Source: Candidatus Saccharimonadota bacterium (GTDB taxonomy: Bacteria; Patescibacteriota; Saccharimonadia; Saccharimonadales; Saccharimonadaceae). Taken from it: 64,000 nt of DNA. This document shows positions 2,623 to 52,596 of this stretch, in pieces; position 1 is the stretch's first letter, and every line of letters begins with the position of its first letter. Below the pieces are notes generated by a model. The model did not search any database and was not told where the DNA came from. It saw only the letters and a program-made list of their open reading frames with translations. The DNA lies in assembly GCA_017404935.1 (NCBI GenBank), contig JAFRBI010000006.1, forward strand, positions 32,379 through 96,378. The letters run 5' to 3'. The translations under genes and the position numbers were made by a program.

Positions 2623-3582
2623 ATGGCTAAAAAAACCTTTACCAAAAAAGAACTAGAGACGCTTTCGGCTGGCGAGATTAACCGCAAAATTATTTATGAG
2701 AATTATTCGCTTCTAAAAACTCTCGGGGCAGAAGATTTAAGAAAAGAAATGGTGCCGGTAGGCAAAGTTTGCAAAACCGCTGTTGGATATTTTATTAATT
2801 CTACCGGGCCTAAAAATAATTACGAAAAGCACTGCAAAAATGCTCGCAAAAAGCTCGTAAAGGTTTTGTCTAAAATTGCGCCTGGTGAATATGAAGGTTT
2901 TCCTAAAGATACCAAAAATGGCTTGGTAGTCGGCTTTAATCACCCTTCACTTGGCGAAATCGGTCGTATTATGATGATGAAAGTAGATGTAATGGGCGAA
3001 TCGACGATGCTTTTCCCGGTAAATTTGCCTTGGTATGAGGCCTTAGCGCCTTTTTATGACAAGATCAAGATGCTTGGAATTATCATCACCCCTACCATCA
3101 CGCCTTCTACTTGGAACAAAATGAAACTTAAAAAAGGCACATTCTTGTATGATGCAGGCGATCGCATTAAACATGAATTTAAAGATATGTACACTAATCT
3201 TTCCCACGAAACTATCAAAAATGGTGGCGTAATCTTTGTGGCGCCTTCTGCTACAAGGCAACAAACCGTATTTAAGTCTAAAGCGGTCTACGACAAGGAA
3301 GAACCAATTATTCCAACAATGTCGGTTTTAGCGCTTAGGCTTTACCAAGACCCAGAAATGAATTGTGATTTTCTGCCAATGGCAGTTTTGCCGCCAAATG
3401 GCTATAAAAAAGGTCTTAATATGCGCAAAAAATACAAATTAATTCCTGGTAAACCGATGACTGCTGATTATATCAAAGAAAAATATTTTAAAGATGGCAA
3501 GATGCCAGAAAAAATTCCGGAATTTGACTGGGAATTCCACCAAAGAATCGCTGATGAACTTCCTAAATCTTTCTGGTACTAA
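2623..3582 (+). CDS. putative lysophospholipid/glycerophosphate acyltransferase (PlsC-like)
   Basis: NHPSLGE resembles the NHxxxxD block I; GGVIFVAPSATR resembles the FPEGTR block III; both degenerate. Confidence 0.55.
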   Translation: MAKKTFTKKELETLSAGEINRKIIYENYSLLKTLGAEDLRKEMVPVGKVCKTAVGYFINSTGPKNNYEKHCKNARKKLVKVLSKIAPGEYEGFPKDTKNGLVVGFNHPSLGEIGRIMMMKVDVMGESTMLFPVNLPWYEALAPFYDKIKMLGIIITPTITPSTWNKMKLKKGTFLYDAGDRIKHEFKDMYTNLSHETIKNGGVIFVAPSATRQQTVFKSKAVYDKEEPIIPTMSVLALRLYQDPEMNCDFLPMAVLPPNGYKKGLNMRKKYKLIPGKPMTADYIKEKYFKDGKMPEKIPEFDWEFHQRIADELPKSFWY

Positions 3583-3605
3583 TAATCTGTGATATAATCA
3601 TAAGC

Positions 3606-5354
3606 ATGAATGATGAAAATGATGGGTTTTTTTATCATCCGTTAGACAACATCGAGGATGCTGAAGTTTTTGAGACCGCAATAGACCGGAAAGTTTTTAA
3701 TCGTAAACTATCAGAAGAGCGTCCTTATACTTATTGGACTTTGGAGCTTTATGATCAAGATAATGGTATTCGCGGTGGTGGTGGTTTGGGCGTTCTGGCT
3801 GCCGATACTCGCCGTGTAGCAGAGCAGGTGAAAGTGCCTTTTGTTTTAGTAACGCCGTTTTATCCATACGAGGCGCACCAAAAATGGCAAGATGGGAGGA
3901 TTATCGACGAACATATACCGGTAGATTATTATAATTATGGTTTCTCTAAAGTTGGTGATGCTTCGGTGAAGTGTTGTGGTAATGACTGTAAACTAGAAGT
4001 AATAGAAAAAAGTTTTGAGTACACCAAAATTGTAGCAGTAACCGAACCGAACTTTGGTGAACTTTACTCTGGACTTTCTGGCTCTGATCACCGCCTTTAT
4101 CAAGAAGTTTGTCTTGGGTTTGGTGGTTACCAAGCGTTAAAAATGTTGGGTTTAAAGCCTGCAATTATGCAGCTAAATGAAGTCGCGACATTTTTTGCAG
4201 CGTTGGTGCGCTTAGATGAGCTAGCTTCAAATGGCATGGACTTTTACGAAGCGGTGGTTTATACCAGAAAACATACTTTATATACCAATCATACTTTAGT
4301 GCAAGCAGCAGAAGCCGAATTTTCTCTAGAGCAATTTGAGAATTTCGTTTTTCCAAATCTTAAATCTCGTCCGGTCAAAAAATGGCTTCACGATAAATTT
4401 GTAGATGGAAAAATCAAACTATCTTCTGTAACGATTGAAATTGCCGAGCTTAGGTCTGGTGTTTCTAAACTTCACGCAAGAGTGGCTAATTACCGTGATA
4501 TCGCTGGCGAACGCGTTAAATTCAAAGCCATCACTAACGGTATCGATATGAAAAAATGGGTAATGCCAGACATTATGAAATTTTATCATAATGAAAATAT
4601 TTTGGATGAGTTTGATATGCCAACGCCAAATTTTGTAGATAATTTGCCGGCTCTTACATCTGATATGATTTTAAGTTTTAAAGAAATTGGACGAGGAATC
4701 TTAAATCAAGAACTTTCAAAAAGACCGGACCAAAATGGCACTATTTTGAAGTTTGAAGAGGGTGAGACAATTTTCGTATTTAAGCGCAGGTTTGTAGATT
4801 ATAAGCGACCGCAACTGCCATTTACAGACCCGGTGAGACTTCGGAATATTCTGGAGCCGAATGATGCGCATTATATTATCGCTGGGAGAGTTCACGCTGG
4901 TGATGAGAGGATGAGCAAGATACTTTCGGAAATTCTGGAAAAAGTAAACTCAGATGATTATCTAAAAACTCATGTGCATTATATCCCTGATTATGATGAA
5001 AAGCTAGCTTATGCGCTATCTGTAGGTTGCAATATTGCAATTAATGTGCCGATTGTGGGCTTGGAGGCTTGTGGCACTTCTTGGGAAAAAGATGTCGCAA
5101 ATTTAAATCTCTTAATTTCTACTCATGATGGTGGTGTGGCAGATGGCTCAACAGAAAGTTATCTTAATGTGCACGGAATGGGCGAAGATGAAGAAGTGCT
5201 AGAATTATATTCTAGAATGGAAGAAGCTGCCAACGCTTGGGAAAATAAATTCGATCTTGATATGATAATCAGAAAACAGCTCGCAGAATTTTTGCCGATA
5301 ATTTCTGGGACAAGAATGCTTTATGATTATTTAGATTATCTGCTTCCAGAATAA
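3606..5354 (+). CDS. glgP: alpha-glucan (glycogen/maltodextrin) phosphorylase, short form
   Basis: GGGGLGVLAAD, AITNG, FKRRFVDYKR and EACGTSWEK (PLP Lys) motifs. Confidence 0.9.
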   Translation: MNDENDGFFYHPLDNIEDAEVFETAIDRKVFNRKLSEERPYTYWTLELYDQDNGIRGGGGLGVLAADTRRVAEQVKVPFVLVTPFYPYEAHQKWQDGRIIDEHIPVDYYNYGFSKVGDASVKCCGNDCKLEVIEKSFEYTKIVAVTEPNFGELYSGLSGSDHRLYQEVCLGFGGYQALKMLGLKPAIMQLNEVATFFAALVRLDELASNGMDFYEAVVYTRKHTLYTNHTLVQAAEAEFSLEQFENFVFPNLKSRPVKKWLHDKFVDGKIKLSSVTIEIAELRSGVSKLHARVANYRDIAGERVKFKAITNGIDMKKWVMPDIMKFYHNENILDEFDMPTPNFVDNLPALTSDMILSFKEIGRGILNQELSKRPDQNGTILKFEEGETIFVFKRRFVDYKRPQLPFTDPVRLRNILEPNDAHYIIAGRVHAGDERMSKILSEILEKVNSDDYLKTHVHYIPDYDEKLAYALSVGCNIAINVPIVGLEACGTSWEKDVANLNLLISTHDGGVADGSTESYLNVHGMGEDEEVLELYSRMEEAANAWENKFDLDMIIRKQLAEFLPIISGTRMLYDYLDYLLPE

Positions 5355-5377
5355 TTTTGGTGTATAATATATAATAT

Positions 5378-6070
5378 ATGGACAAGAATTTTAAAGTTCG
5401 CGTGATTATTGGGCTTTCGATGTTTGTGGTAGCCTTAATTGGGCTTTATACTTTTGACTCAATTCCGTTCAAAGTTATCTTTACCTTCTTTTCGGTGATG
5501 TCTTTGATTGAGCTTTTGTCATTTTTCAAAAACAAGCATGCCCCGTTTAATGTGTTTCTGGCTTTATTTGAAATTTTACTTATCATTGGCGGCACGGCTT
5601 TTGTAATAAAAGTAGATTTAAATCATTTTTGGTATATTATTCTTGGGGTTCCGGGTTACGATATTTTTGCATATCTTTTTGGTAAGATGTGCGGTGGTAA
5701 AATTTTTAAAAAATCGCGTCCATTTCCATATATTTCTAAAAACAAAACTTGGGAGGGGACCTTCCTTGGGCTGCTCACGGCCACCACTTTCGTAATTATT
5801 AGAATATCTACTCAAAATGCTTTTGAAACCGACTGGATGTATCTTTTATGTGGTCCACTAGCTCTTACTGGTGATTTGATTGAAAGCTATCTCAAACGCA
5901 AGTTTGAAGTCAAAGATTCTAACGAAATCATTATTAAAAATAAATTCTTTAAATTTGTAGAGATGCTCGTAGGCGGCAGTGAAGGCCACGGCGGGTTTTT
6001 GGACCGCGTAGATTCTACTGTATTCACTGGTTCTGTGCTTTTGATTATTTTATTAATTTGCGGCCTTTAA
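5378..6070 (+). CDS. cdsA: phosphatidate cytidylyltransferase
   Basis: Hydrophobic; ISKNKTWEG, ESYLKR and GHGGFLDRVDS signatures. Confidence 0.93.
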   Translation: MDKNFKVRVIIGLSMFVVALIGLYTFDSIPFKVIFTFFSVMSLIELLSFFKNKHAPFNVFLALFEILLIIGGTAFVIKVDLNHFWYIILGVPGYDIFAYLFGKMCGGKIFKKSRPFPYISKNKTWEGTFLGLLTATTFVIIRISTQNAFETDWMYLLCGPLALTGDLIESYLKRKFEVKDSNEIIIKNKFFKFVEMLVGGSEGHGGFLDRVDSTVFTGSVLLIILLICGL

Positions 6071-6578
6071 ATAAGTAAACTACACCGGAGAGAACTGTCA
6101 AGATCACCACTATATATAATAGTATGGCGTTTATAATAGCTAGCGGTTCTAGATTTAAAATGCGGTTTAAAAGAATTAAAATTACCGTAATCATTTGAAC
6201 CGTGGTTTTTACTTTACCAAAAATGTTGGCTGGAATAATGGTATTTTTGCTGGCAGCCATCATGCGCATACCATCCACAGCAAAATCACGAATTAGAATT
6301 ACCCCAAACATCCAAACCGGCATTAAATTAAGTACCACTAGAGCAAGAAATGTGAGGTTTATAAGCATTTTGTCGGCTAATGGGTCTAAAAAACTCCCTA
6401 AGTCCGTGACTTGCTTATTTTTACGGGCAAGATGACCGTCTAATTTATCAGTGATCGACGCCAATGTAAAACATGTGATAACCGCAATTTGAGCCGGCAA
6501 ATTATCTATAAAAATCAAAATCATTACCGGGGCTACTAGGATAATTCTAATTATCGTTAAAATAGTGGGGAAATTCAT
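6045..6578 (-). CDS. pgsA: CDP-diacylglycerol--glycerol-3-phosphate 3-phosphatidyltransferase
   Basis: DKLDGHLARK...GSFLDPLADK CDP-alcohol phosphotransferase motif; start at MNFPTILT overlaps the upstream stop (ATGA). Confidence 0.93.
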   Translation of the reverse strand: MNFPTILTIIRIILVAPVMILIFIDNLPAQIAVITCFTLASITDKLDGHLARKNKQVTDLGSFLDPLADKMLINLTFLALVVLNLMPVWMFGVILIRDFAVDGMRMMAASKNTIIPANIFGKVKTTVQMITVILILLNRILNLEPLAIINAILLYIVVILTVLSGVVYLFKGRKLIK

Positions 6579-7006
6579 ACAATATCTCTTCTGTGTTCTA
6601 CTTTCCACGCACGGACTTTAGCGAATTTGGCAGCCAAGACATCGGTAGACCATTTGTCGCCAAGCATTACGGTTTCTGATGGTTTAATATTTAATTCTTC
6701 CATTTTGGCGGTAAGCTTAGTAGAAACAGGTTTTTTCGCCCACCATACACAATCAATACCTAGAGGTTCACAGAATTTTTGCATCATCTTTTTGCGACCA
6801 TTGTTTGAGATAATTACAATTTTGACGCCAGCGTCTTTTAGATCTGATACCCAGTCAGCGAGTTCGTCAGCTGGCTCTTTTTCGGAATGAAGCCTCAGGG
6901 TATTATCTAAGTCGCACAAAATGAGTTTAACATTTTCTTTTTTTAGAAGCTCCGGGGTAACGTCCTCAAAGCGTTCGAATTTTTTGTCTGCGTGAAAAAC
7001 GGTCAT
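6575..7006 (-). CDS. yqeG: YqeG-family HAD-IIIA phosphatase (candidate phosphatidylglycerophosphatase)
   Basis: DLDNTL, ISNN, AKKP and MLGDKWSTDVLAA HAD motifs. Confidence 0.85.
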   Translation of the reverse strand: MTVFHADKKFERFEDVTPELLKKENVKLILCDLDNTLRLHSEKEPADELADWVSDLKDAGVKIVIISNNGRKKMMQKFCEPLGIDCVWWAKKPVSTKLTAKMEELNIKPSETVMLGDKWSTDVLAAKFAKVRAWKVEHRRDIV

Positions 7007-7043: not shown

Positions 7044-8033
7044 ATGTACGATAAATTTACAGAGTTTTTGAAAGATAAAAAATCTATTTGTATAATTCAG
7101 GCAGAGAATCCAGATGGCGACTCTCTAGGCTCGGCAATTGCACTGGATTATATTTTGAAGGACACTGAAAATTCTTTATATTGCCCGATTGACATACCTA
7201 AATACCTACATTATTTTCCAGATTGGTCGAGGGTATCGTCTGATTTTGATTTCAAGGCAGATGGATATATTATTGTGGATACTGCGGCAGAAGTATTACT
7301 TTCTAAATTGCTTGACGATACAGCAATCAAAAACCGTCTATACTCGGCCCCAGTGCTAGTAATAGATCATCACGAAACCGAAGACGATATCACCTTCCCA
7401 CACGAAAGCATTATAGAGGTCCGCCCAGCTGCAGCAGAAGTAGTATTTGAAATCGCCAAATCTTGTAATCTTGAGGTTGATAAGCCTGCCGCTGAAGCTT
7501 TGATGCAAGCCATTATGTCTGACACATTGGGCCTTACTAGCGTGGCAGTAAATGCGCGGACTTTTGAAATTATGGCAGAGCTGTCTAAGCTTGGCGCAAA
7601 TATTGGCGAACTAGAAGAAAACCGCCGCGAATATATGAAAAAATCGCAGAGAATTTTTGAATATAAGGCTGAGCTTATCAAACGTTCGGAATTCTATCTT
7701 GATGGGGTACTTGCTACGGTTTTGATTCCTTGGGAAGATATTGAAGAATATTCGGATGAATACAACCCGAATGTTTTAATTTTGGAAGAACTGAGAATGG
7801 TGGAAGGCGTAAAAGTCGCGGTGGCTGTCAAAACTTACCCAGATGGCAAAGTTACTGGCAAAATTCGCTGTTCTGGCGATGCCTCTATTGCGGATAAAAT
7901 TGCTGGTTATTTTGGCGGCGGCGGACATCCGTATGCGGCTGGATTTAGAACCTATGATACTAGCTACGAAGAAGTAATAAAAGATTTAATAAAAATAGTG
8001 CCACAACTTTTGGCAGAGGAGGAACATGCTTAA
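7044..8033 (+). CDS. DHH-family phosphoesterase (NrnA-like)
   Basis: PDGDSLGS, IVDT, IDHH, GGGGHPYAAG. Confidence 0.9.
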   Translation: MYDKFTEFLKDKKSICIIQAENPDGDSLGSAIALDYILKDTENSLYCPIDIPKYLHYFPDWSRVSSDFDFKADGYIIVDTAAEVLLSKLLDDTAIKNRLYSAPVLVIDHHETEDDITFPHESIIEVRPAAAEVVFEIAKSCNLEVDKPAAEALMQAIMSDTLGLTSVAVNARTFEIMAELSKLGANIGELEENRREYMKKSQRIFEYKAELIKRSEFYLDGVLATVLIPWEDIEEYSDEYNPNVLILEELRMVEGVKVAVAVKTYPDGKVTGKIRCSGDASIADKIAGYFGGGGHPYAAGFRTYDTSYEEVIKDLIKIVPQLLAEEEHA

Positions 8034-8751
8034 ACTTACCAAAACTTACGACCATTGCCAGTCAAAAAAACCAGAGCTGACCGTGGTATGCGTGCATGGG
8101 ATTGCAGATGATTCTTCACGGTTTGTTAAACCTCTTACATATCTTGAAGGGGCCACTTCACTCAAAAATGTCCGGTTTGTCTGTTTTGATCTGCTAGGAT
8201 CTGGCAAATCTACTTGTTCTGATAAGTTAAATTACGATTTCAAAGAACAGCTTGAGGCGCTAGAAAATTCTATCAACGCCTTAAAAACCAAAACTCCGTT
8301 GGTTTTAATGGGACATTCAATGGGTTGTTTGATTTCGGCACGGTTTGCCGATACTCACAAAAGAATGGTAAAAGAACTGATTTTGGTTTCGCCACCAGTA
8401 TTTAGGCCAGAGGAATTCGATAGTCCAAAAATGGCTGCCGGAAAAGAAGGTTTTAGGCAACTAATGATTCTGAAAGATTCTAAATACAAAAAAGATAAGG
8501 CTTTTAATAATGAGCTCGAAAAAATCGTCTTTAATAAACACAATTACAATGTCTATACTAGGCTAACTCGGCCAACCACTATAATATATGGTGCCACCGA
8601 TCAGATTATTGCAGGATACAACATCCCTGGCCTTGTTAAGTTAAATCCAAAAATTACCGCCATCAAAACTCCTGGCACACATGGGATTGGACATGATAAA
8701 TATCCAAAAATAGTGCCGATTTTAGAGAGGATTTTGAATGAAGTTGTATAA
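8026..8751 (+). CDS. alpha/beta hydrolase
   Basis: VHG, DLLGSG, GHSMG nucleophile elbow, C-terminal His. Confidence 0.88.
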   Translation: MLKLTKTYDHCQSKKPELTVVCVHGIADDSSRFVKPLTYLEGATSLKNVRFVCFDLLGSGKSTCSDKLNYDFKEQLEALENSINALKTKTPLVLMGHSMGCLISARFADTHKRMVKELILVSPPVFRPEEFDSPKMAAGKEGFRQLMILKDSKYKKDKAFNNELEKIVFNKHNYNVYTRLTRPTTIIYGATDQIIAGYNIPGLVKLNPKITAIKTPGTHGIGHDKYPKIVPILERILNEVV

Positions 8752-10078
8752 TACTCTCACCCGCAAAGTAGAAAATTTTAAACCAGCTGGTGATACAGTA
8801 AAAATTTATACTTGTGGCCCAACAGTTTATAATTTTCCGCATATTGGTAACTATGCAGCGTATGCTTACTGGGACCTTTTGGTGCGCTGCCTTAAATTAA
8901 ACGGCTACAACGTAAAACGTGTGCTTAATCTTACCGACGTGGGGCACCTTACTTCTGATGCAGATGATGGGGAAGATAAGCTAGAAAAAGGCGCGAGGTT
9001 AGAGGGTAAAACGCCGTTTGAAATTGCTGATTTTTATGCTAAGGTCTATCTCGATAATTACAAGAAGATGGAATTTTTGCCAGCAGATGTGATCGCTAGA
9101 GCTACCGACTATATCCCCGAAGATATGGAAGCGGTAGATTTGATGACTAAAAACGGCTACACTTATGAAACTCGTGACGGTGTGTATTTTGACACCGCTA
9201 AATTCCCAGAATATGCCGATTTTGCTAGGTTAGATTTGGAAGGACTTAAAGCCGGTGCTAGAGTTGGGTTTTCTTCCGAAAAACGTAATGTGTCAGACTT
9301 CGCCGTATGGAAGTTTATTCAGCCAGGTGAAAACCACGCGATGCGTTGGGACTATCTTGGCCGGCCAGGTTATCCAGGCTGGCATCTAGAATGTGCCACG
9401 ATTATTCATAAAGAGCTGGGTGAGTCGATTGATATTCATACTGGCGGGATTGATCATATTCCAATTCATCATACTAATGAAATCGCCGAAACTTACGCTG
9501 CTTACGGCACTAAGTTGTCTAGATTTTGGCTACACTGTGATTTTATTACGATAGATGGTCAAAAAATCTCTAAATCGCTAGGAAACACCTACACTTTGGA
9601 AGATTTAGAATCTCGTGGGTTTTCGCCGATGGATTATAAGATGTGGCTTTTATCTGGGCATTACCAGGGGACGCGAAATTTTACTTTTGAAAGTCTGGAG
9701 GCTGCTAAAAATCGGAGGGCTAACTGGCGCGAGAGAATTGCTCTTTGCTATCAAAAGCCGGTTGAAAGCGATGAAGGGAATTTTGCTAAAGTGTTAGAGG
9801 CCGTTAATAATAATCTTAATTCGGCTGAAGCGTGCGCGATTATTGATAACTGTGCCTTGTCACTTGATGATTGGCGGAAGATAGATGAGCTATTTGGACT
9901 GCGGTTAATTTCTGACACCCCTGATGTGTCTGACGAGGTTTATAATTTGATCCACGAAAGAGATGTGGCGAGAGCTAGCAAAGATTTTGCTATGTCTGAC
10001 AAAATTCGTGATGAACTCTTAAAGCAGGGAATCGCGCTATCAGACACGCCGGATGGGGCGATGTGGTATTATAATTAA
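8738..10078 (+). CDS. cysS: cysteine--tRNA ligase
   Basis: CGPTVY, HIGN, PGWHLEC, GGIDH, KISKSLGN. Confidence 0.97.
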   Translation: MKLYNTLTRKVENFKPAGDTVKIYTCGPTVYNFPHIGNYAAYAYWDLLVRCLKLNGYNVKRVLNLTDVGHLTSDADDGEDKLEKGARLEGKTPFEIADFYAKVYLDNYKKMEFLPADVIARATDYIPEDMEAVDLMTKNGYTYETRDGVYFDTAKFPEYADFARLDLEGLKAGARVGFSSEKRNVSDFAVWKFIQPGENHAMRWDYLGRPGYPGWHLECATIIHKELGESIDIHTGGIDHIPIHHTNEIAETYAAYGTKLSRFWLHCDFITIDGQKISKSLGNTYTLEDLESRGFSPMDYKMWLLSGHYQGTRNFTFESLEAAKNRRANWRERIALCYQKPVESDEGNFAKVLEAVNNNLNSAEACAIIDNCALSLDDWRKIDELFGLRLISDTPDVSDEVYNLIHERDVARASKDFAMSDKIRDELLKQGIALSDTPDGAMWYYN

Positions 10079-41027: not shown

Positions 41028-41049
41028 ACTGTGCTATAATTAGGGAAGT

Positions 41050-41100
41050 TACCAAAGACAGTGGCGGCGAAAGCTTAATCATGCCACCGAGGAATTATTC
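41050..41100 (+). promoter_or_regulatory. L10 leader (rplJ autoregulatory RNA)
   Basis: AAGACAGTGGC...GCTTAAT...GCCACCGAGG matches the L10-leader pattern; directly upstream of rplJ. Confidence 0.8.
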
Positions 41101-41178
41101 TTATAATAGAGTTTTGGTGACGATGTTTAACAACTAGCTAACTTTATTATTACAAATTATTAACCAAAGGAACTTTTT

Positions 41179-49322: not shown

Positions 49323-49928
49323 ATGCTTCCAAAGGCACTTTCTGACGCGATTGAGGCTTTAGGTATGCTTCCTGGTGTTGGCCCAAAAACGGCTGAACGC
49401 TACGCATACTATCTTTTTAAATCTAGCGATAAAGTGTCTTCTGCTATTTCGGAAGCTCTTTCTAATTTACACAAGGGCGTAAAATCTTGCCCGGTGACTT
49501 TTGCTTTGATTGATGCTAATGACAAAGTTTCGCCACTTTACAGCGACCCTACGCGTGATAAAACTACTGTAATGGTGGTAGAAGAACCGTTGGATATCTT
49601 TGCGATTGAGCAAACCAAGTCTTATAAAGGCACTTATCATGTGCTAGGTGGGGCGATTTCGCCGATTGATGGTATTACGCCAGAACAACTACATATTGGC
49701 GAGCTAATCAAACGTGTAAATGACGACAATGTAAAAGAGGTAATTATCGCCACCAACCCTTCGGTAGAGGGCGAATCTACAGCGCTTCTGCTGGAAAAAA
49801 TGCTGCACGAACAAAATCCAAACCTCAAGTTGACTCGCCTTGCGCGCGGGTTGCCACTAGGTGTAGATTTGTCTTATGCGGACCAAATTACACTTAGCGC
49901 AGCATTAGAGAACCGACAGGCACTCTGA
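49323..49928 (+). CDS. recR: recombination mediator RecR
   Basis: LPGVGPKTAER, VVEEP, YHVLGG, ATNPSVEGE, LARGLPLG. Confidence 0.96.
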   Translation: MLPKALSDAIEALGMLPGVGPKTAERYAYYLFKSSDKVSSAISEALSNLHKGVKSCPVTFALIDANDKVSPLYSDPTRDKTTVMVVEEPLDIFAIEQTKSYKGTYHVLGGAISPIDGITPEQLHIGELIKRVNDDNVKEVIIATNPSVEGESTALLLEKMLHEQNPNLKLTRLARGLPLGVDLSYADQITLSAALENRQAL

Positions 49929-50023
49929 GGGGCCGCGTCCGGCCGGCCCGTCGCCACGGGCGGCCGGCGCTTCGCCTCGCGCTGCCGCGCTCCGGAATCC
50001 CCTCAGAGCGCCTGTCGGTTCTC
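49908..50023 (+). repeat. GC-rich hairpin element between convergent recR and ligase; arms are the last 21 nt of both genes
   Basis: gagaaccgacaggcactctga / tcagagcgcctgtcggttctc (20/21). Confidence 0.93.
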
Positions 50024-51745
50024 TTTTAACGCCATAAAGTCTACTTTGCCAAGTTTGGTTTTTGGAAGCTCTTTTACGAATTCTAGTTCGCGTGGCATCT
50101 CGTATTTGGCGAGATATTTTTTATAAAGTTTATTTAGATCTTTTTTAGCGGCGTGGGCGCTTTCTTCTGGTTTTAAGACAATAAATACTTTGACAATTTC
50201 GCCACGAAGTTTGTCTGGAATGCCTACACAAATACAGGTATCAACATACTTAGATTTTAATGTAGCTTCTTCTACGTTTGAAGGGTAAATATTATAACCA
50301 TTTGAAATAATCATTCTTTTTAGTCTAGCCTTAAAGTAAACTACGCCGTTTTCATCTACATAGCCAATATCGCCGGTTCTTAGATATTTTTTGCCGCCAA
50401 CTTTAACAAAAGTTTTTTCGGTTTCTTTAGGGTTGTTTAAGTATTCTTTCATAATGGTGAGGCCACGCACTAAGATTTCACCACTTTCACCGGTTTTTAC
50501 AGGCTTTTTGGTTTTTGGGTCTACAATTAAAGCTTCGCTGTCTGGAAGAGGGAAGCCAATCGCGTTATCTAGGCCCGCTACTTTTTTGGCCGAGAAAATC
50601 ATACCACCAGCAGCTTCGGTGAGGCCGTAGCCGTTTTGAATGACTGCCTTTGAGCCGTGATCTTTCAAGAATTTATTAATATCGTCTTTTAGGGACTGGC
50701 TGACAATATCGCCACCTGATACTACACCTTTAATGCGTCTGAGCTCTCTCGGGCCAAACTTAACTTTCATCATATATTCAAATACTGTAGGCACCCCCAC
50801 AAGTACGTTGATACGATAATTCTTAATATATTTTTTGAGTTTTTTGGCGTTGAACTGTGGAATTAGGACCATACGCATGCCGCAGTAAAGTGGAATATGC
50901 ATACAAACCCCCATACCAAAAGCGTGGAAATTTGGGAGAAAACAAAGCATAGAATAACGAGGCTTCAAAAGCTCAGAAACTAGATACTTAGCACCGAGAG
51001 CCTGGGCGTTAAAATTCATACTAGTCAATACTACGCCTTTTGGTTTGCCGGTAGTACCACCAGAATAGAGAATGATGGCTGGATCATCTGGTTTCATATG
51101 AACGTGCGGATCTTCGGTGTATTTGAGAGATTTTAGCATAAATCTATCCCAAGTCATCACGTTTTGAGAACGTTTAATGTGATTTTTTCTGCCTTTGGTA
51201 AGTTTAAATAAAAGCCTTACCAAAAAGTCCATCGAACGAGTAGGGGAGACTACAATTAAGTGCTCTACATCGGTATTTTTGATGATGTTTTCTACTCTAG
51301 GATAGGTAACATCAATACAAAGCATCATTTTGGACTTTGACTGAATTAAATAATCTTCGATTTCTTTTTCGGAAGAAAGTGGGTGCACCATATTAGCCAC
51401 GGCACCAATCTCGTTTACGGCATAAAACATATAAACTGCTTCTGGGGTGTTTGGCATACAGATGGTAACGAAATCACCCTTTTTAATACCGAGAGCCTTC
51501 ATCGCGGCGGCAGCCTTATTAATCTTTTTGATCATTTCTTTGTAGGAAATTTCCATTTTGAAGTATTCAAGAGCAGTGCGATTTGGATAACGCTCAGCAG
51601 AGCGTAAAATTGCCTCGTACATACTGCCTTCAAAATATTTTAATTCTTTAGGGAGTTTTTCAATATAACCATATTTGTTGCGTTCGATATAAACGTCTAG
51701 CTTACGCATGCCGCTTCGGACTTTGTTGTACAGGAATTCTAACAT
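50003..51745 (-). CDS. AMP-forming acyl-CoA ligase (FadD-like)
   Basis: YSGGTTGKPKG, NGYGLTEA, RTGDIG, GYNIYP, KLGKVD. Confidence 0.9.
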   Translation of the reverse strand: MLEFLYNKVRSGMRKLDVYIERNKYGYIEKLPKELKYFEGSMYEAILRSAERYPNRTALEYFKMEISYKEMIKKINKAAAAMKALGIKKGDFVTICMPNTPEAVYMFYAVNEIGAVANMVHPLSSEKEIEDYLIQSKSKMMLCIDVTYPRVENIIKNTDVEHLIVVSPTRSMDFLVRLLFKLTKGRKNHIKRSQNVMTWDRFMLKSLKYTEDPHVHMKPDDPAIILYSGGTTGKPKGVVLTSMNFNAQALGAKYLVSELLKPRYSMLCFLPNFHAFGMGVCMHIPLYCGMRMVLIPQFNAKKLKKYIKNYRINVLVGVPTVFEYMMKVKFGPRELRRIKGVVSGGDIVSQSLKDDINKFLKDHGSKAVIQNGYGLTEAAGGMIFSAKKVAGLDNAIGFPLPDSEALIVDPKTKKPVKTGESGEILVRGLTIMKEYLNNPKETEKTFVKVGGKKYLRTGDIGYVDENGVVYFKARLKRMIISNGYNIYPSNVEEATLKSKYVDTCICVGIPDKLRGEIVKVFIVLKPEESAHAAKKDLNKLYKKYLAKYEMPRELEFVKELPKTKLGKVDFMALKENRQAL

Positions 51746-51771
51746 ATATATATTATATCATATACGGATAT

Positions 51772-52596
51772 TTATTCAGGTAGGGCCAACTGTATTTTTG
51801 AGAGTGCCGAAAGTTGCTTACTCACCATTTCACGAAGTAATAATAAACGTTCGGGCTGAGATTTATTCTGACTAATTAAAATTGCGTTGTAGCTTTCTAG
51901 ATTTGCCAAAACCAATAATTGATCTATGGTAGCTTCGTCACGGATATTACCTTTTTTCCTTTTATTTTCGGTGCGCCACTCGCTAGCAGTTTTGCCAAAT
52001 AGAGCTACATTTAGTAAATCTGCTTCTTCTGCATATGTAAAATGAATTTGTCTTGGGGTTAGCTCTGGTGGAATTAAATTATTTTTAATCGCATCGGTAT
52101 GAATTCTATAATTGATTTTGCTAAGTTCGCGATTAAGGTTCCAGTTTAGAGATAATTTTGAGTTTTCGTCTGATTTGATACGTTGGTAGTCTTTTATGAT
52201 ATATAATTTAAACTCTGCCGAAATCCAAGATGCAAATTCAAAGGCGATATCGGAATGGGCGTAGGTGCCACCATAGCGACCAGATTTGGCTACAATACCA
52301 ACAGCATTAACCGTATTTATCCATTTTTGCGGAGACATCGAAAATGCATTGTATCCAGCTTCATTTCTAAACCCTTCAAATTCGACGGGTTTAAAATTTG
52401 GGTTATGCAATTCTTCCCATAAGCCAAGAAAAGTGATGGTTTCTTTTGACTTCATCCAAGTGCGAATAGCGTCATTCGGGTCGTCGCTTTTATATTTCGC
52501 AATATCCGTGAGCGAAATAAATTCGTTCTCAAAATCGTTGGTATAGATGCCAATTTTTAGTCCTTTGGCGTGAATAGTTTCTTGAACCTTTATCAT
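51772..52596 (-). CDS. KilA-N domain DNA-binding protein
   Basis: ISLTDIAK, GRYGGTYAHSDIAFEFASWIS. Confidence 0.88.
   Translation of the reverse strand: MIKVQETIHAKGLKIGIYTNDFENEFISLTDIAKYKSDDPNDAIRTWMKSKETITFLGLWEELHNPNFKPVEFEGFRNEAGYNAFSMSPQKWINTVNAVGIVAKSGRYGGTYAHSDIAFEFASWISAEFKLYIIKDYQRIKSDENSKLSLNWNLNRELSKINYRIHTDAIKNNLIPPELTPRQIHFTYAEEADLLNVALFGKTASEWRTENKRKKGNIRDEATIDQLLVLANLESYNAILISQNKSQPERLLLLREMVSKQLSALSKIQLALPE

Follow-up and report, generated by a model that had tools for sequence, protein, structure and literature searches.

A conserved fadD-cdsA-pgsA-yqeG gene cluster predicted to make phosphatidylglycerol, and an orphan acyltransferase candidate, in ruminant-gut Saccharibacteria

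The source of membrane lipids in bacteria belonging to the Candidate Phyla Radiation (CPR), or Patescibacteria, is an open question. We analyzed a window of 64,000 nucleotides (C1:32379-96378 of the host assembly) with particular attention to positions 2623-7006, which an initial annotation had described as a phosphatidylglycerol (PG) synthesis cluster of four genes within 4.4 kb: a PlsC-like acyltransferase, cdsA, pgsA and a YqeG-type HAD (haloacid dehalogenase) phosphatase. All four open reading frames (ORFs) were found in place. The interval holds five ORFs, three on the + strand and two on the - strand, and the gene missing from the earlier list is an alpha-glucan phosphorylase homologue that lies between the acyltransferase candidate and cdsA. 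The features discussed here are the following.

2587-2616, + strand: candidate sigma-70-like promoter (TTACCA-18-TATAAT, TG upstream), 10/12 consensus matches (consensus match only), directly 5' of the ATG at 2623

2623-3582, + strand: orphan acyltransferase candidate of the glycerol-3-phosphate acyltransferase (GPAT)/lysophospholipid acyltransferase (LPLAT) fold, 319 aa, proposed from structure models and a motif, with no sequence-family match

3606-5354, + strand: alpha-glucan (maltodextrin/glycogen) phosphorylase homologue, 582 aa, PF00343 at 51.8 bits

5378-6070, + strand: cdsA, phosphatidate cytidylyltransferase, a polytopic membrane protein of 230 aa, PF01148

6045-6578, - strand: pgsA, 177 aa from the ATG at 6578, or 187 aa from a GTG (6045-6608), TIGR00560

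6575-7006, - strand: yqeG/pgpP, predicted HAD-IIIA phosphatidylglycerophosphate (PGP) phosphatase, 143 aa, TIGR01668 and PF09419

50003-51745, - strand: fadD, long-chain acyl-CoA ligase, PF00501 at 281 bits, ~44 kb from cdsA

The host assembly comprises 740,059 bp in 11 contigs, with 47 tRNA genes and ~41% G+C. The closest homologues of each tested gene, and the closest loci, were all named Candidatus Saccharibacteria or Candidatus Nanosyncoccus, which confirms the earlier assignment of the host to the CPR. These homologues came from metagenome-assembled genomes (MAGs) of goat, sheep, yak, buffalo and cattle gut, and the host is a Candidatus Nanosyncoccus (Saccharibacteria, CPR) of the ruminant gut. 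Contamination or mis-binning of the contig was considered and rejected on the basis of a completeness of 98.8%, a contamination of 1.3% and long-range synteny with ~50 Saccharibacteria MAGs.

The identities proposed for cdsA, pgsA and the YqeG-type phosphatase were borne out, with each protein scoring over the cut-off of its family. CdsA reached 91.1 bits on PF01148 (cut-off 24), was matched by E. coli CdsA as a phmmer query at 2.5e-10 and contains 29 hydrophobic 19-residue windows; its 44.6 bits on the NCBIfam equivalog NF008635 (cut-off 385) are expected for a short, divergent CdsA. PgsA scored 150.7 bits on the TIGR00560 equivalog (cut-off 109.1), with the family alignment beginning at the residue encoded at 6578, and it carries the full CDP-alcohol phosphatidyltransferase motif D-x2-DG-x2-AR-x8-G-x3-D-x3-D, which reads DKLDGHLARKNKQVTDLGSFLDPLAD in translation. 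YqeG scored 98 bits on TIGR01668 (cut-off 89.1) and 29.8 bits on PF09419, PGP_phosphatase ('mitochondrial PGP phosphatase', cut-off 20.4), matching model positions 9-131 of 170; ~20-30 C-terminal residues of the model are missing from the protein. Its HAD motifs LILCDLDNT(L), SNN, KP and GD...TD are invariant in 53 clade sequences, and its hhhDxDx motif has both of the Asp residues that are essential in B. subtilis PgpP (PMC11804483).

We observed that yqeG and pgsA overlap by ATGA, as had been noted before, with the TGA stop of yqeG at 6577-6575 and the ATG of pgsA at 6578-6576 ('...att gtATGAat...'), and the two genes are predicted to be translationally coupled. The YqeG family has been shown to be an essential PGP phosphatase in B. 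subtilis and S. aureus: B. subtilis YqeG is PgpP, its depletion results in the accumulation of PGP, and pgpP from either species rescues E. coli lacking PgpA, PgpB and PgpC (PMC11804483; 2025). The text of that study makes no mention of Patescibacteria or Saccharibacteria. E. coli PgpA and PgpB, run as phmmer queries on the host genome (E <= 1; the controls gave matches), had no homologue there, which leaves YqeG as the only PGP-phosphatase candidate from a known family. The suggestion that YqeG of 6575-7006 is the PGP phosphatase has gained in strength accordingly with the family work, as the role is established for the family; for the present protein it is predicted from sequence, with support from the coupling to pgsA and the lack of PgpA and PgpB.

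By family membership, CdsA would convert phosphatidic acid (PA) to CDP-diacylglycerol (CDP-DAG), PgsA would combine CDP-DAG with glycerol-3-phosphate (G3P) to yield PGP, and YqeG (= PgpP) would dephosphorylate PGP to PG. These assignments indicate that the branch from PA through CDP-DAG and PGP to PG is encoded in full. CDP-alcohol phosphatidyltransferases are hard to assign from sequence, and PgsA also gave weaker matches to models for ClsA-type cardiolipin synthase and archaetidylinositol-phosphate (AIP) synthase, while inositol-lipid operons have been reported for other Saccharibacteria. The pgsA/yqeG pair might then make a lipid other than PG (cardiolipin by a ClsA-type reaction, or an inositol lipid), with YqeG dephosphorylating another phospholipid phosphate. 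We regard this as highly improbable, since TIGR00560 is matched well over its cut-off and the scores for ClsA, phosphatidylinositol-phosphate and AIP synthases fall far under theirs, and since YqeG exceeds the cut-off of the PgpP family and contains the DxD motif.

Related loci were collected by a scan with the PgsA protein, taking one genome per GTDB species, which yielded 52 Saccharibacterial and 28 non-Saccharibacterial loci. yqeG lies directly upstream of pgsA on the same strand in the 51 Saccharibacterial loci that cover that side (L098 is cut inside pgsA), and the 4-nt stop/start overlap ([AG]TGA) was found in 29/52 loci by automatic start call. cdsA is convergent and downstream of pgsA in nearly all 49 loci holding cdsA, usually with overlapping 3' ends (26 nt in the host genome); L052 is rearranged. 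The orthologue of the fadD gene at 50003-51745 directly adjoins cdsA in 39/49 loci and stands beside yqeG in several of the remaining ones. YqeG adjoined pgsA in 0/28 non-Saccharibacterial loci, mostly from Firmicutes and Kiritimatiellota. Neither the 319-aa gene nor the phosphorylase gene was found within ~4 kb of cdsA in any of the 52 Saccharibacterial loci. What the clade conserves as a lipid cluster is therefore fadD-cdsA-pgsA-yqeG, an association beyond chance, unlike the four-gene set of 2623-7006: the yqeG-pgsA-cdsA part of the earlier cluster is conserved, commonly with fadD, and the orphan acyltransferase candidate is not part of it. That the coupling of yqeG to pgsA is conserved also backs, on independent genomic grounds, the identification of YqeG as PgpP made in 2025, and does so for a phylum outside that study.

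The host genome departs from this arrangement. fadD is ~44 kb away, the pair formed by the 319-aa gene and the phosphorylase gene occupies its place beside cdsA, and the genome is rearranged with a breakpoint between cdsA and fadD. Within window positions 49323-52596, fadD sits between recR (49323-49928, + strand) and a KilA-N domain gene (51772-52596, - strand); recR comes after fadD in the 39/49 relatives where fadD abuts cdsA. A simple inversion was rejected as the origin of the host gene order, because the other neighbour of fadD is the KilA-N protein and not the expected breakpoint partner. The rearrangement is possibly linked to a mobile element.

A block of genes for NrnA, an alpha/beta-hydrolase and CysS lies beside yqeG-pgsA-cdsA in nearly all related loci. 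In the window, the hydrolase gene (8026-8751, + strand, 241 aa) overlaps the genes for both NrnA (7044-8033) and CysS (8738-10078). The protein matches Abhydrolase_1 and Hydrolase_4 (monoglyceride-lipase/lysophospholipase type), with a weak EstV-lipase match, and may act as a lipase or lysophospholipase supplying FadD with released fatty acids. Six of the collected records (L072, L073, L083, L087, L092 and L095) were deposited as 'Clostridiales bacterium', 'Bulleidia sp.' or 'bacterium', yet they show the full Saccharibacterial CysS-hydrolase-NrnA-yqeG-pgsA-cdsA synteny, and the two of them included in the PgsA tree described below (L072 and L087) nest within the Nanosyncoccus PgsA clade. The labels or the binning of these records are probably wrong. 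Two distant relatives with the orphan gene have cdsA between rplK (L11) and rplA (L1) in the secE-nusG-rplKA cluster (L008:14436-15143 and L010:14496-15968), L010 with two copies in tandem.

Outside the Nanosyncoccus clade, few Patescibacteria carry a bona fide pgsA or yqeG. Of 301 evenly sampled genomes of the phylum, 4 exceeded the TIGR00560 cut-off and 6 that of TIGR01668, and the best PgsA score belonged to the host genome. Neither family exceeded its cut-off in the same-genus genome G038 or in six genomes from five other genera of the same family, where the sole match at E <= 1e-5 was a weak PgsA-like one (~30 bits, in G263). The nearest non-Saccharibacterial PgsA proteins, from Anaerotignum, Lachnospiraceae and Kiritimatiellales, share 38-42% identity. 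A maximum-likelihood tree groups PgsA of Nanosyncoccus in a single clade (SH-aLRT, a likelihood-ratio branch support, of 96). This clade shares an unresolved polytomy with Bacillota+Kiritimatiellota sequences and with PgsA-like proteins from other Patescibacteria, and is far from the latter, whose branches are long; the Firmicutes in this tree were picked as best matches, and their sampling is biased. Horizontal transfer from gut Firmicutes had been raised initially as a possibility to test. The well-supported clade fits a clade-specific acquisition of PgsA, possibly from such a source, and its position in a polytomy is not decisive and does not amount to proof.

The supply of acyl chains was assessed by absence searches with Pfam hidden Markov models (HMMs) over the whole genome and with phmmer, using E. 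coli proteins as queries against all six-frame ORFs; the phmmer positive controls UppS, CdsA, RnhB, GpmM, MutM, ThyA and NusB were all matched. The Pfam search of the whole genome found no PlsY, DegV/FakB, PP-binding (acyl carrier protein, ACP) or phospholipase D (PLD)-type cardiolipin synthase, and phmmer against the six-frame ORFs found no PlsX, FabH, FabD, AcpP, FabF, FabZ, AccA, PlsB, DgkA, GlpK, GlpF or Lgt. Since single-sequence phmmer is less sensitive than HMMs, the latter absences are probable and not certain. Given the lack of ACP, PlsY, FakB/DegV, PlsX, FabH/D/F/Z, AccA and PlsB, and the presence of two FadD proteins (AMP-binding long-chain acyl-CoA ligases), the gene content indicates that acyl chains must come from scavenging, as the initial annotation had proposed. 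The FadD of 50003-51745 also matches NF006181 at 372 bits, under the cut-off of that model. A FabG-like short-chain dehydrogenase/reductase is present and scores best as a gluconate 5-dehydrogenase. With no Lgt homologue, PG is apparently not required for Lgt-type lipoprotein maturation.

Of the genes named earlier as worth seeking genome-wide, PlsX, PlsY and those for type II fatty-acid synthesis (FASII) were thus not found, whereas the search for PlsC and GpsA returned one PF01553 protein and a GpsA-like protein under its cut-off. The PF01553 acyltransferase has 278 aa, is encoded on contig C10 (L001:189-2827) and carries the NCBI name PlsC in relatives. One lipid-kinase homologue of the DAGK_cat type was also detected.

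Taken together, we consider it fairly probable that the host combines the full PA-to-PG head-group branch with a salvage-type Kennedy pathway that makes PA from scavenged material, with ORF 2623-3582 as a GPAT/LPLAT acyltransferase. The two FadD acyl-CoA ligases would activate free fatty acids that have been scavenged, and the only two LPLAT-fold enzymes of the genome, namely the PF01553 protein and ORF 2623-3582, would esterify the activated chains to G3P, giving PA. The G3P would be supplied by the GpsA-like enzyme. In a parallel route to PA, host diacylglycerol could be phosphorylated by the DAGK_cat-type kinase.

The protein encoded by ORF 2623-3582 is basic and has no transmembrane segment. 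An AlphaFold2 model built from a 62-sequence alignment reached a pLDDT (per-residue confidence) of 95.8 and a pTM (global fold confidence) of 0.92, and has a helical domain of ~85 residues at the N-terminus and an alpha/beta domain after it. In a Foldseek search of the PDB, human GPAT1 (8e4y) came first (E 7e-4, probability 0.99) and mycobacterial PatA next (0.97 and 0.90), with other folds at <= 0.33. A second model, for the family member L011 (~22% identical to ORF 2623-3582; pLDDT 91.6), matched the squash soluble GPAT 1K30 (probability 1.00, TM 0.41), GPAT1 (1.00) and PatA chains at ranks 3-7. Non-LPLAT folds stayed at a probability of <= ~0.5 in both models.

Motif I of the family falls at the expected place in the model of ORF 2623-3582. 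It reads N106-H107-P-S-L-G-E112 (N-H-x-S-x-x-[E/D] in the family) and is located after strand 100-105, where helix 111-124 begins; N106 is conserved in 61/62 members and H107 in 59/62, and position 112 (+5) is E in 52 and D in 10, hence acidic in 62/62, a variant with mostly Glu for Asp. A207-P-S-A-T-R212 follows strand 203-206, where F-x-E-G-T-R normally lies, with R212 in 56/62 and T211 in 47/62 members. F-L-P-x-A-V at 250-255 (F-[LV]-P-x-A-V in the family) forms a strand like that of motif IV. The models and motifs make it very probable that ORF 2623-3582 encodes a divergent acyltransferase of the GPAT/LPLAT superfamily. Its predicted architecture and best fold matches resemble those of soluble and mitochondrial glycerol-3-phosphate 1-acyltransferases, and its role is most likely the acylation of an acceptor of the glycerol-phosphate type (G3P or a lysolipid). 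The earlier label 'PlsC-like' is valid solely at the level of motif and fold: motif I and a predicted LPLAT fold are present, but the protein has no PF01553 match and its best folds are GPATs and PatA rather than PlsC.

Several observations weigh against our reading of the locus, and they are given here with the alternatives on which they bear. At the sequence level, ORF 2623-3582 had no match in Pfam, in NCBIfam or, by phmmer, in the PDB. PF01553 reached E 0.089 in only 2/62 family members, and hhalign of the family with the Saccharibacterial PF01553 'PlsC' alignment and with E. coli PlsB gave a probability of 0.2. Motif III lacks the usual Glu-Gly and has Ser-Ala instead, and the TM-scores of the fold matches are 0.35-0.41 with a large root-mean-square deviation. 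The region of the NH motif alone ever aligned in sequence-level comparisons; the sole match of the family profile among PDB sequences was T. maritima PlsC (5kym), aligned at NHQSLMD (NHxSxxD) with an E of 0.71, which is not significant alone. The family is large (~800 90%-clusters and 101 50%-clusters), its named members are all Saccharibacterial, and among GTDB species representatives it is limited to the genus of the host (3/3 genomes), with none in 183 other genera of the order or in the rest of the phylum sample. The lack of significant sequence or profile similarity to any family, the low TM-scores and the restriction to one genus would suit a protein with only a generic alpha/beta likeness and an unrelated, lineage-specific function. 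We find this quite improbable, as two members that are ~22% identical and were independently modelled both rank LPLAT folds first (probabilities 0.90 to 1.00, others <= ~0.5). Moreover, the near-invariant N-H and the always-acidic +5 residue are placed exactly at motif I, after a strand and at the start of a helix, and the one PDB sequence matched by the family profile is a PlsC, aligned at this motif.

The genomic context of the orphan gene is a second point of difficulty, in that its constant neighbour is the glucan phosphorylase gene and not a lipid gene. The phosphorylase gene directly follows the orphan gene in 29/30 related loci and in both other genomes of the genus (G038 and G533; loci L006 and L013). 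In the distant relatives L008 and L010 (36-40% identity) the pair is kept with one unrelated gene inserted, which was tested as a possible paralogue and is not one. G038 carries the pair without pgsA or yqeG, and the orphan gene lies near cdsA in the host genome only (0/52 relatives). The phosphorylase homologue exceeds the PF00343 cut-off of 27 bits and falls just under that of TIGR02094 (183.4 against 191.7); it contains an E-A-C-G-T-S-W-E-K motif, a candidate for the pyridoxal-phosphate lysine motif that was aligned by eye.

ORF 2623-3582 might thus partner with the adjacent phosphorylase and not with the PG branch, in a PatA-like acylation of a sugar, sugar-phosphate or glycolipid, its proximity to cdsA being an accident of the rearrangement. 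The persistence of the pair, its distance from cdsA in all relatives, its occurrence in G038 and the recurrent fold match to PatA, a sugar-acylating LPLAT, all speak for this explanation. On the other hand, all these genomes come from a single genus in which gene order is generally conserved, so that adjacency says little about coupling, and G3P acyltransferases supply the two best fold matches. The conserved Arg at the motif III position fits a phosphate-bearing acceptor, and no known pathway joins a GT35 phosphorylase with an LPLAT. In addition, the orphan family occurs in 48/49 genomes carrying the PG cluster, typically 14-25 kb away on the same contig. Although we judge such a sugar-directed role unlikely, a functional link to the phosphorylase is a serious rival, and the genomic context neither proves nor excludes a lipid role of the orphan.

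In the window, the orphan gene, the phosphorylase gene and cdsA are co-directional with gaps of 23 nt, and no terminator-like site was found between 3582 and 5378; this layout is compatible with a single transcript spanning 2623-6070. Upstream of the orphan gene lie tRNA-Gln(CUG) (2488-2562, - strand) and a 494-aa ORF with no Pfam or NCBIfam match (952-2436, + strand). The sole Rfam match in the window besides the tRNA is a ribosomal protein L10 leader at 41034-41157 (+ strand; RF00557, 54 bits).

The remaining difficulties for the favored salvage pathway concern its substrates and its second acyltransferase. The phmmer search of the six-frame ORFs found no homologue of CoaD, CoaBC or CoaE; coenzyme A (CoA) for FadD would therefore need to be imported, and it is uncertain what really serves as acyl donor. 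With 260 aa, the GpsA-like protein is short, and its 99 bits on NF000942 are under the cut-off. The PF01553 gene lies between two GT8 glycosyltransferase genes and encodes NHTNPFHD where HX4D is expected. Owing to these flanks and the atypical motif, a PlsC role of this protein is uncertain, and it may acylate a glycolipid or wall polymer rather than lysophosphatidic acid.

The absence of CoA-synthesis genes would favor CoA-independent transacylation, and ORF 2623-3582 might accordingly be a lysophospholipid acyltransferase or tafazzin-like transacylase that re-acylates or remodels lysolipids of host origin and does not begin PA synthesis de novo, with PA coming mainly from host diacylglycerol through the DAGK_cat kinase, or being imported. 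Such enzymes are covered by the LPLAT superfamily fold, lysolipids are reported to be enriched in CPR cells (PMC7242380), and a DAGK_cat homologue is present. However, sn-1 G3P acyltransferases head the fold matches, ahead of AGPAT/PlsC and any other lysophospholipid acyltransferase. The presence of two FadD genes, of which one belongs to the cluster in relatives, points to free fatty acids being activated for esterification, and the DAGK_cat match is limited to the N-terminal domain, with kinase scores far under curated cut-offs. We consider re-acylation of lysolipids unlikely.

A more specific version of the salvage pathway holds that the orphan family is the missing ACP-independent G3P acyltransferase in a line running from FadD through the orphan GPAT, the PF01553 protein as lysophosphatidic acid acyltransferase, CdsA and PgsA to PgpP, assembled in one genus of gut Saccharibacteria partly by gene acquisition. 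This complete line is speculative, and we doubt that it is correct in every part. If it were, these CPR bacteria would build PG from just free fatty acids, G3P and imported CoA.

In conclusion, one well-sampled animal-gut genus appears to have kept or gained a complete PA-to-PG branch, including PgpP, that is physically linked to a fatty-acid-activating enzyme, and the orphan family stands out as a specific, unannotated candidate for the acylation step that is missing. Every part lends itself to complementation tests in standard E. coli lipid mutants, without culturing the epibiont. Surveys of CPR genomes have reported no complete lipid pathway, and ACP in none of them (PMC7242380). A Saccharibacterium with cdsA, pgsA and cardiolipin synthase and without fatty-acid synthesis was described in 2018 (PMC6031116), and FadD was noted in 2024 as a feature of mammal-gut Saccharibacteria (PMC11659515), a study with which the absence of CoA-synthesis genes in the host also agrees. 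What appears to be new is the fadD-cdsA-pgsA-pgpP cluster with its conserved pgpP/pgsA overlap in one genus, the scarcity of the PA-to-PG branch elsewhere in the phylum, and the genus-restricted orphan family with a predicted GPAT fold.

The predicted PG branch uses the same three families, CdsA, PgsA and PgpP, and the same steps from PA through CDP-DAG and PGP to PG as in the Firmicutes B. subtilis and S. aureus (PMC11804483), with a shared HAD-IIIA hhhDxDx active site and with PgpA/PgpB unneeded or absent. The host YqeG is shorter (143 aa versus ~172 aa in Firmicutes), and its gene is coupled to pgsA, whereas in Firmicutes it heads a yqeG-yqeH operon away from pgsA. The Saccharibacterial cluster also adds fadD and, unlike in Firmicutes, the branch would have to be fed without FASII, ACP or PlsX/Y, which the host lacks.

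The orphan protein is predicted to share with squash ATS1 (1K30) and human mitochondrial GPAT1 (8E4Y) a helical N-terminal domain followed by an alpha/beta catalytic domain, and a catalytic His that has an acidic partner at +5; like 1K30, it is predicted to be soluble or peripheral. It differs from both in having no detectable sequence homology (TM ~0.4), mostly HX4E in place of HX4D, and A-P-S-A-T-R in place of F-x-E-G-T-R. PatA, the phosphatidylinositol-mannoside acyltransferase of Mycobacterium (5F31, 5F2Z, 5OCE), is the recurrent fold match; it uses acyl-CoA and likewise has no transmembrane helices and a Glu that partners the catalytic His, but a distant stretch of the chain, rather than position +5, provides this Glu, and a hydroxyl of mannose serves as the acceptor.

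Like the host, 'T. rhizospherense' (PMC6031116), a Saccharibacterium from soil, has cdsA and pgsA and is a fatty-acid auxotroph, and a rebuilding of lipids out of supplied 1,2-diacyl-sn-glycerol-3-phosphate is envisaged for both. For 'T. rhizospherense', PLD, cardiolipin synthase and phosphatidylinositol synthase were reported and a PGP phosphatase was not named, whereas the host has no PLD-type enzyme and a PgpP coupled to pgsA. Unlike the 'T. rhizospherense' gene set, the acyl-CoA ligases and two LPLAT-fold enzymes of the host suggest that its lipids are assembled from free fatty acids.

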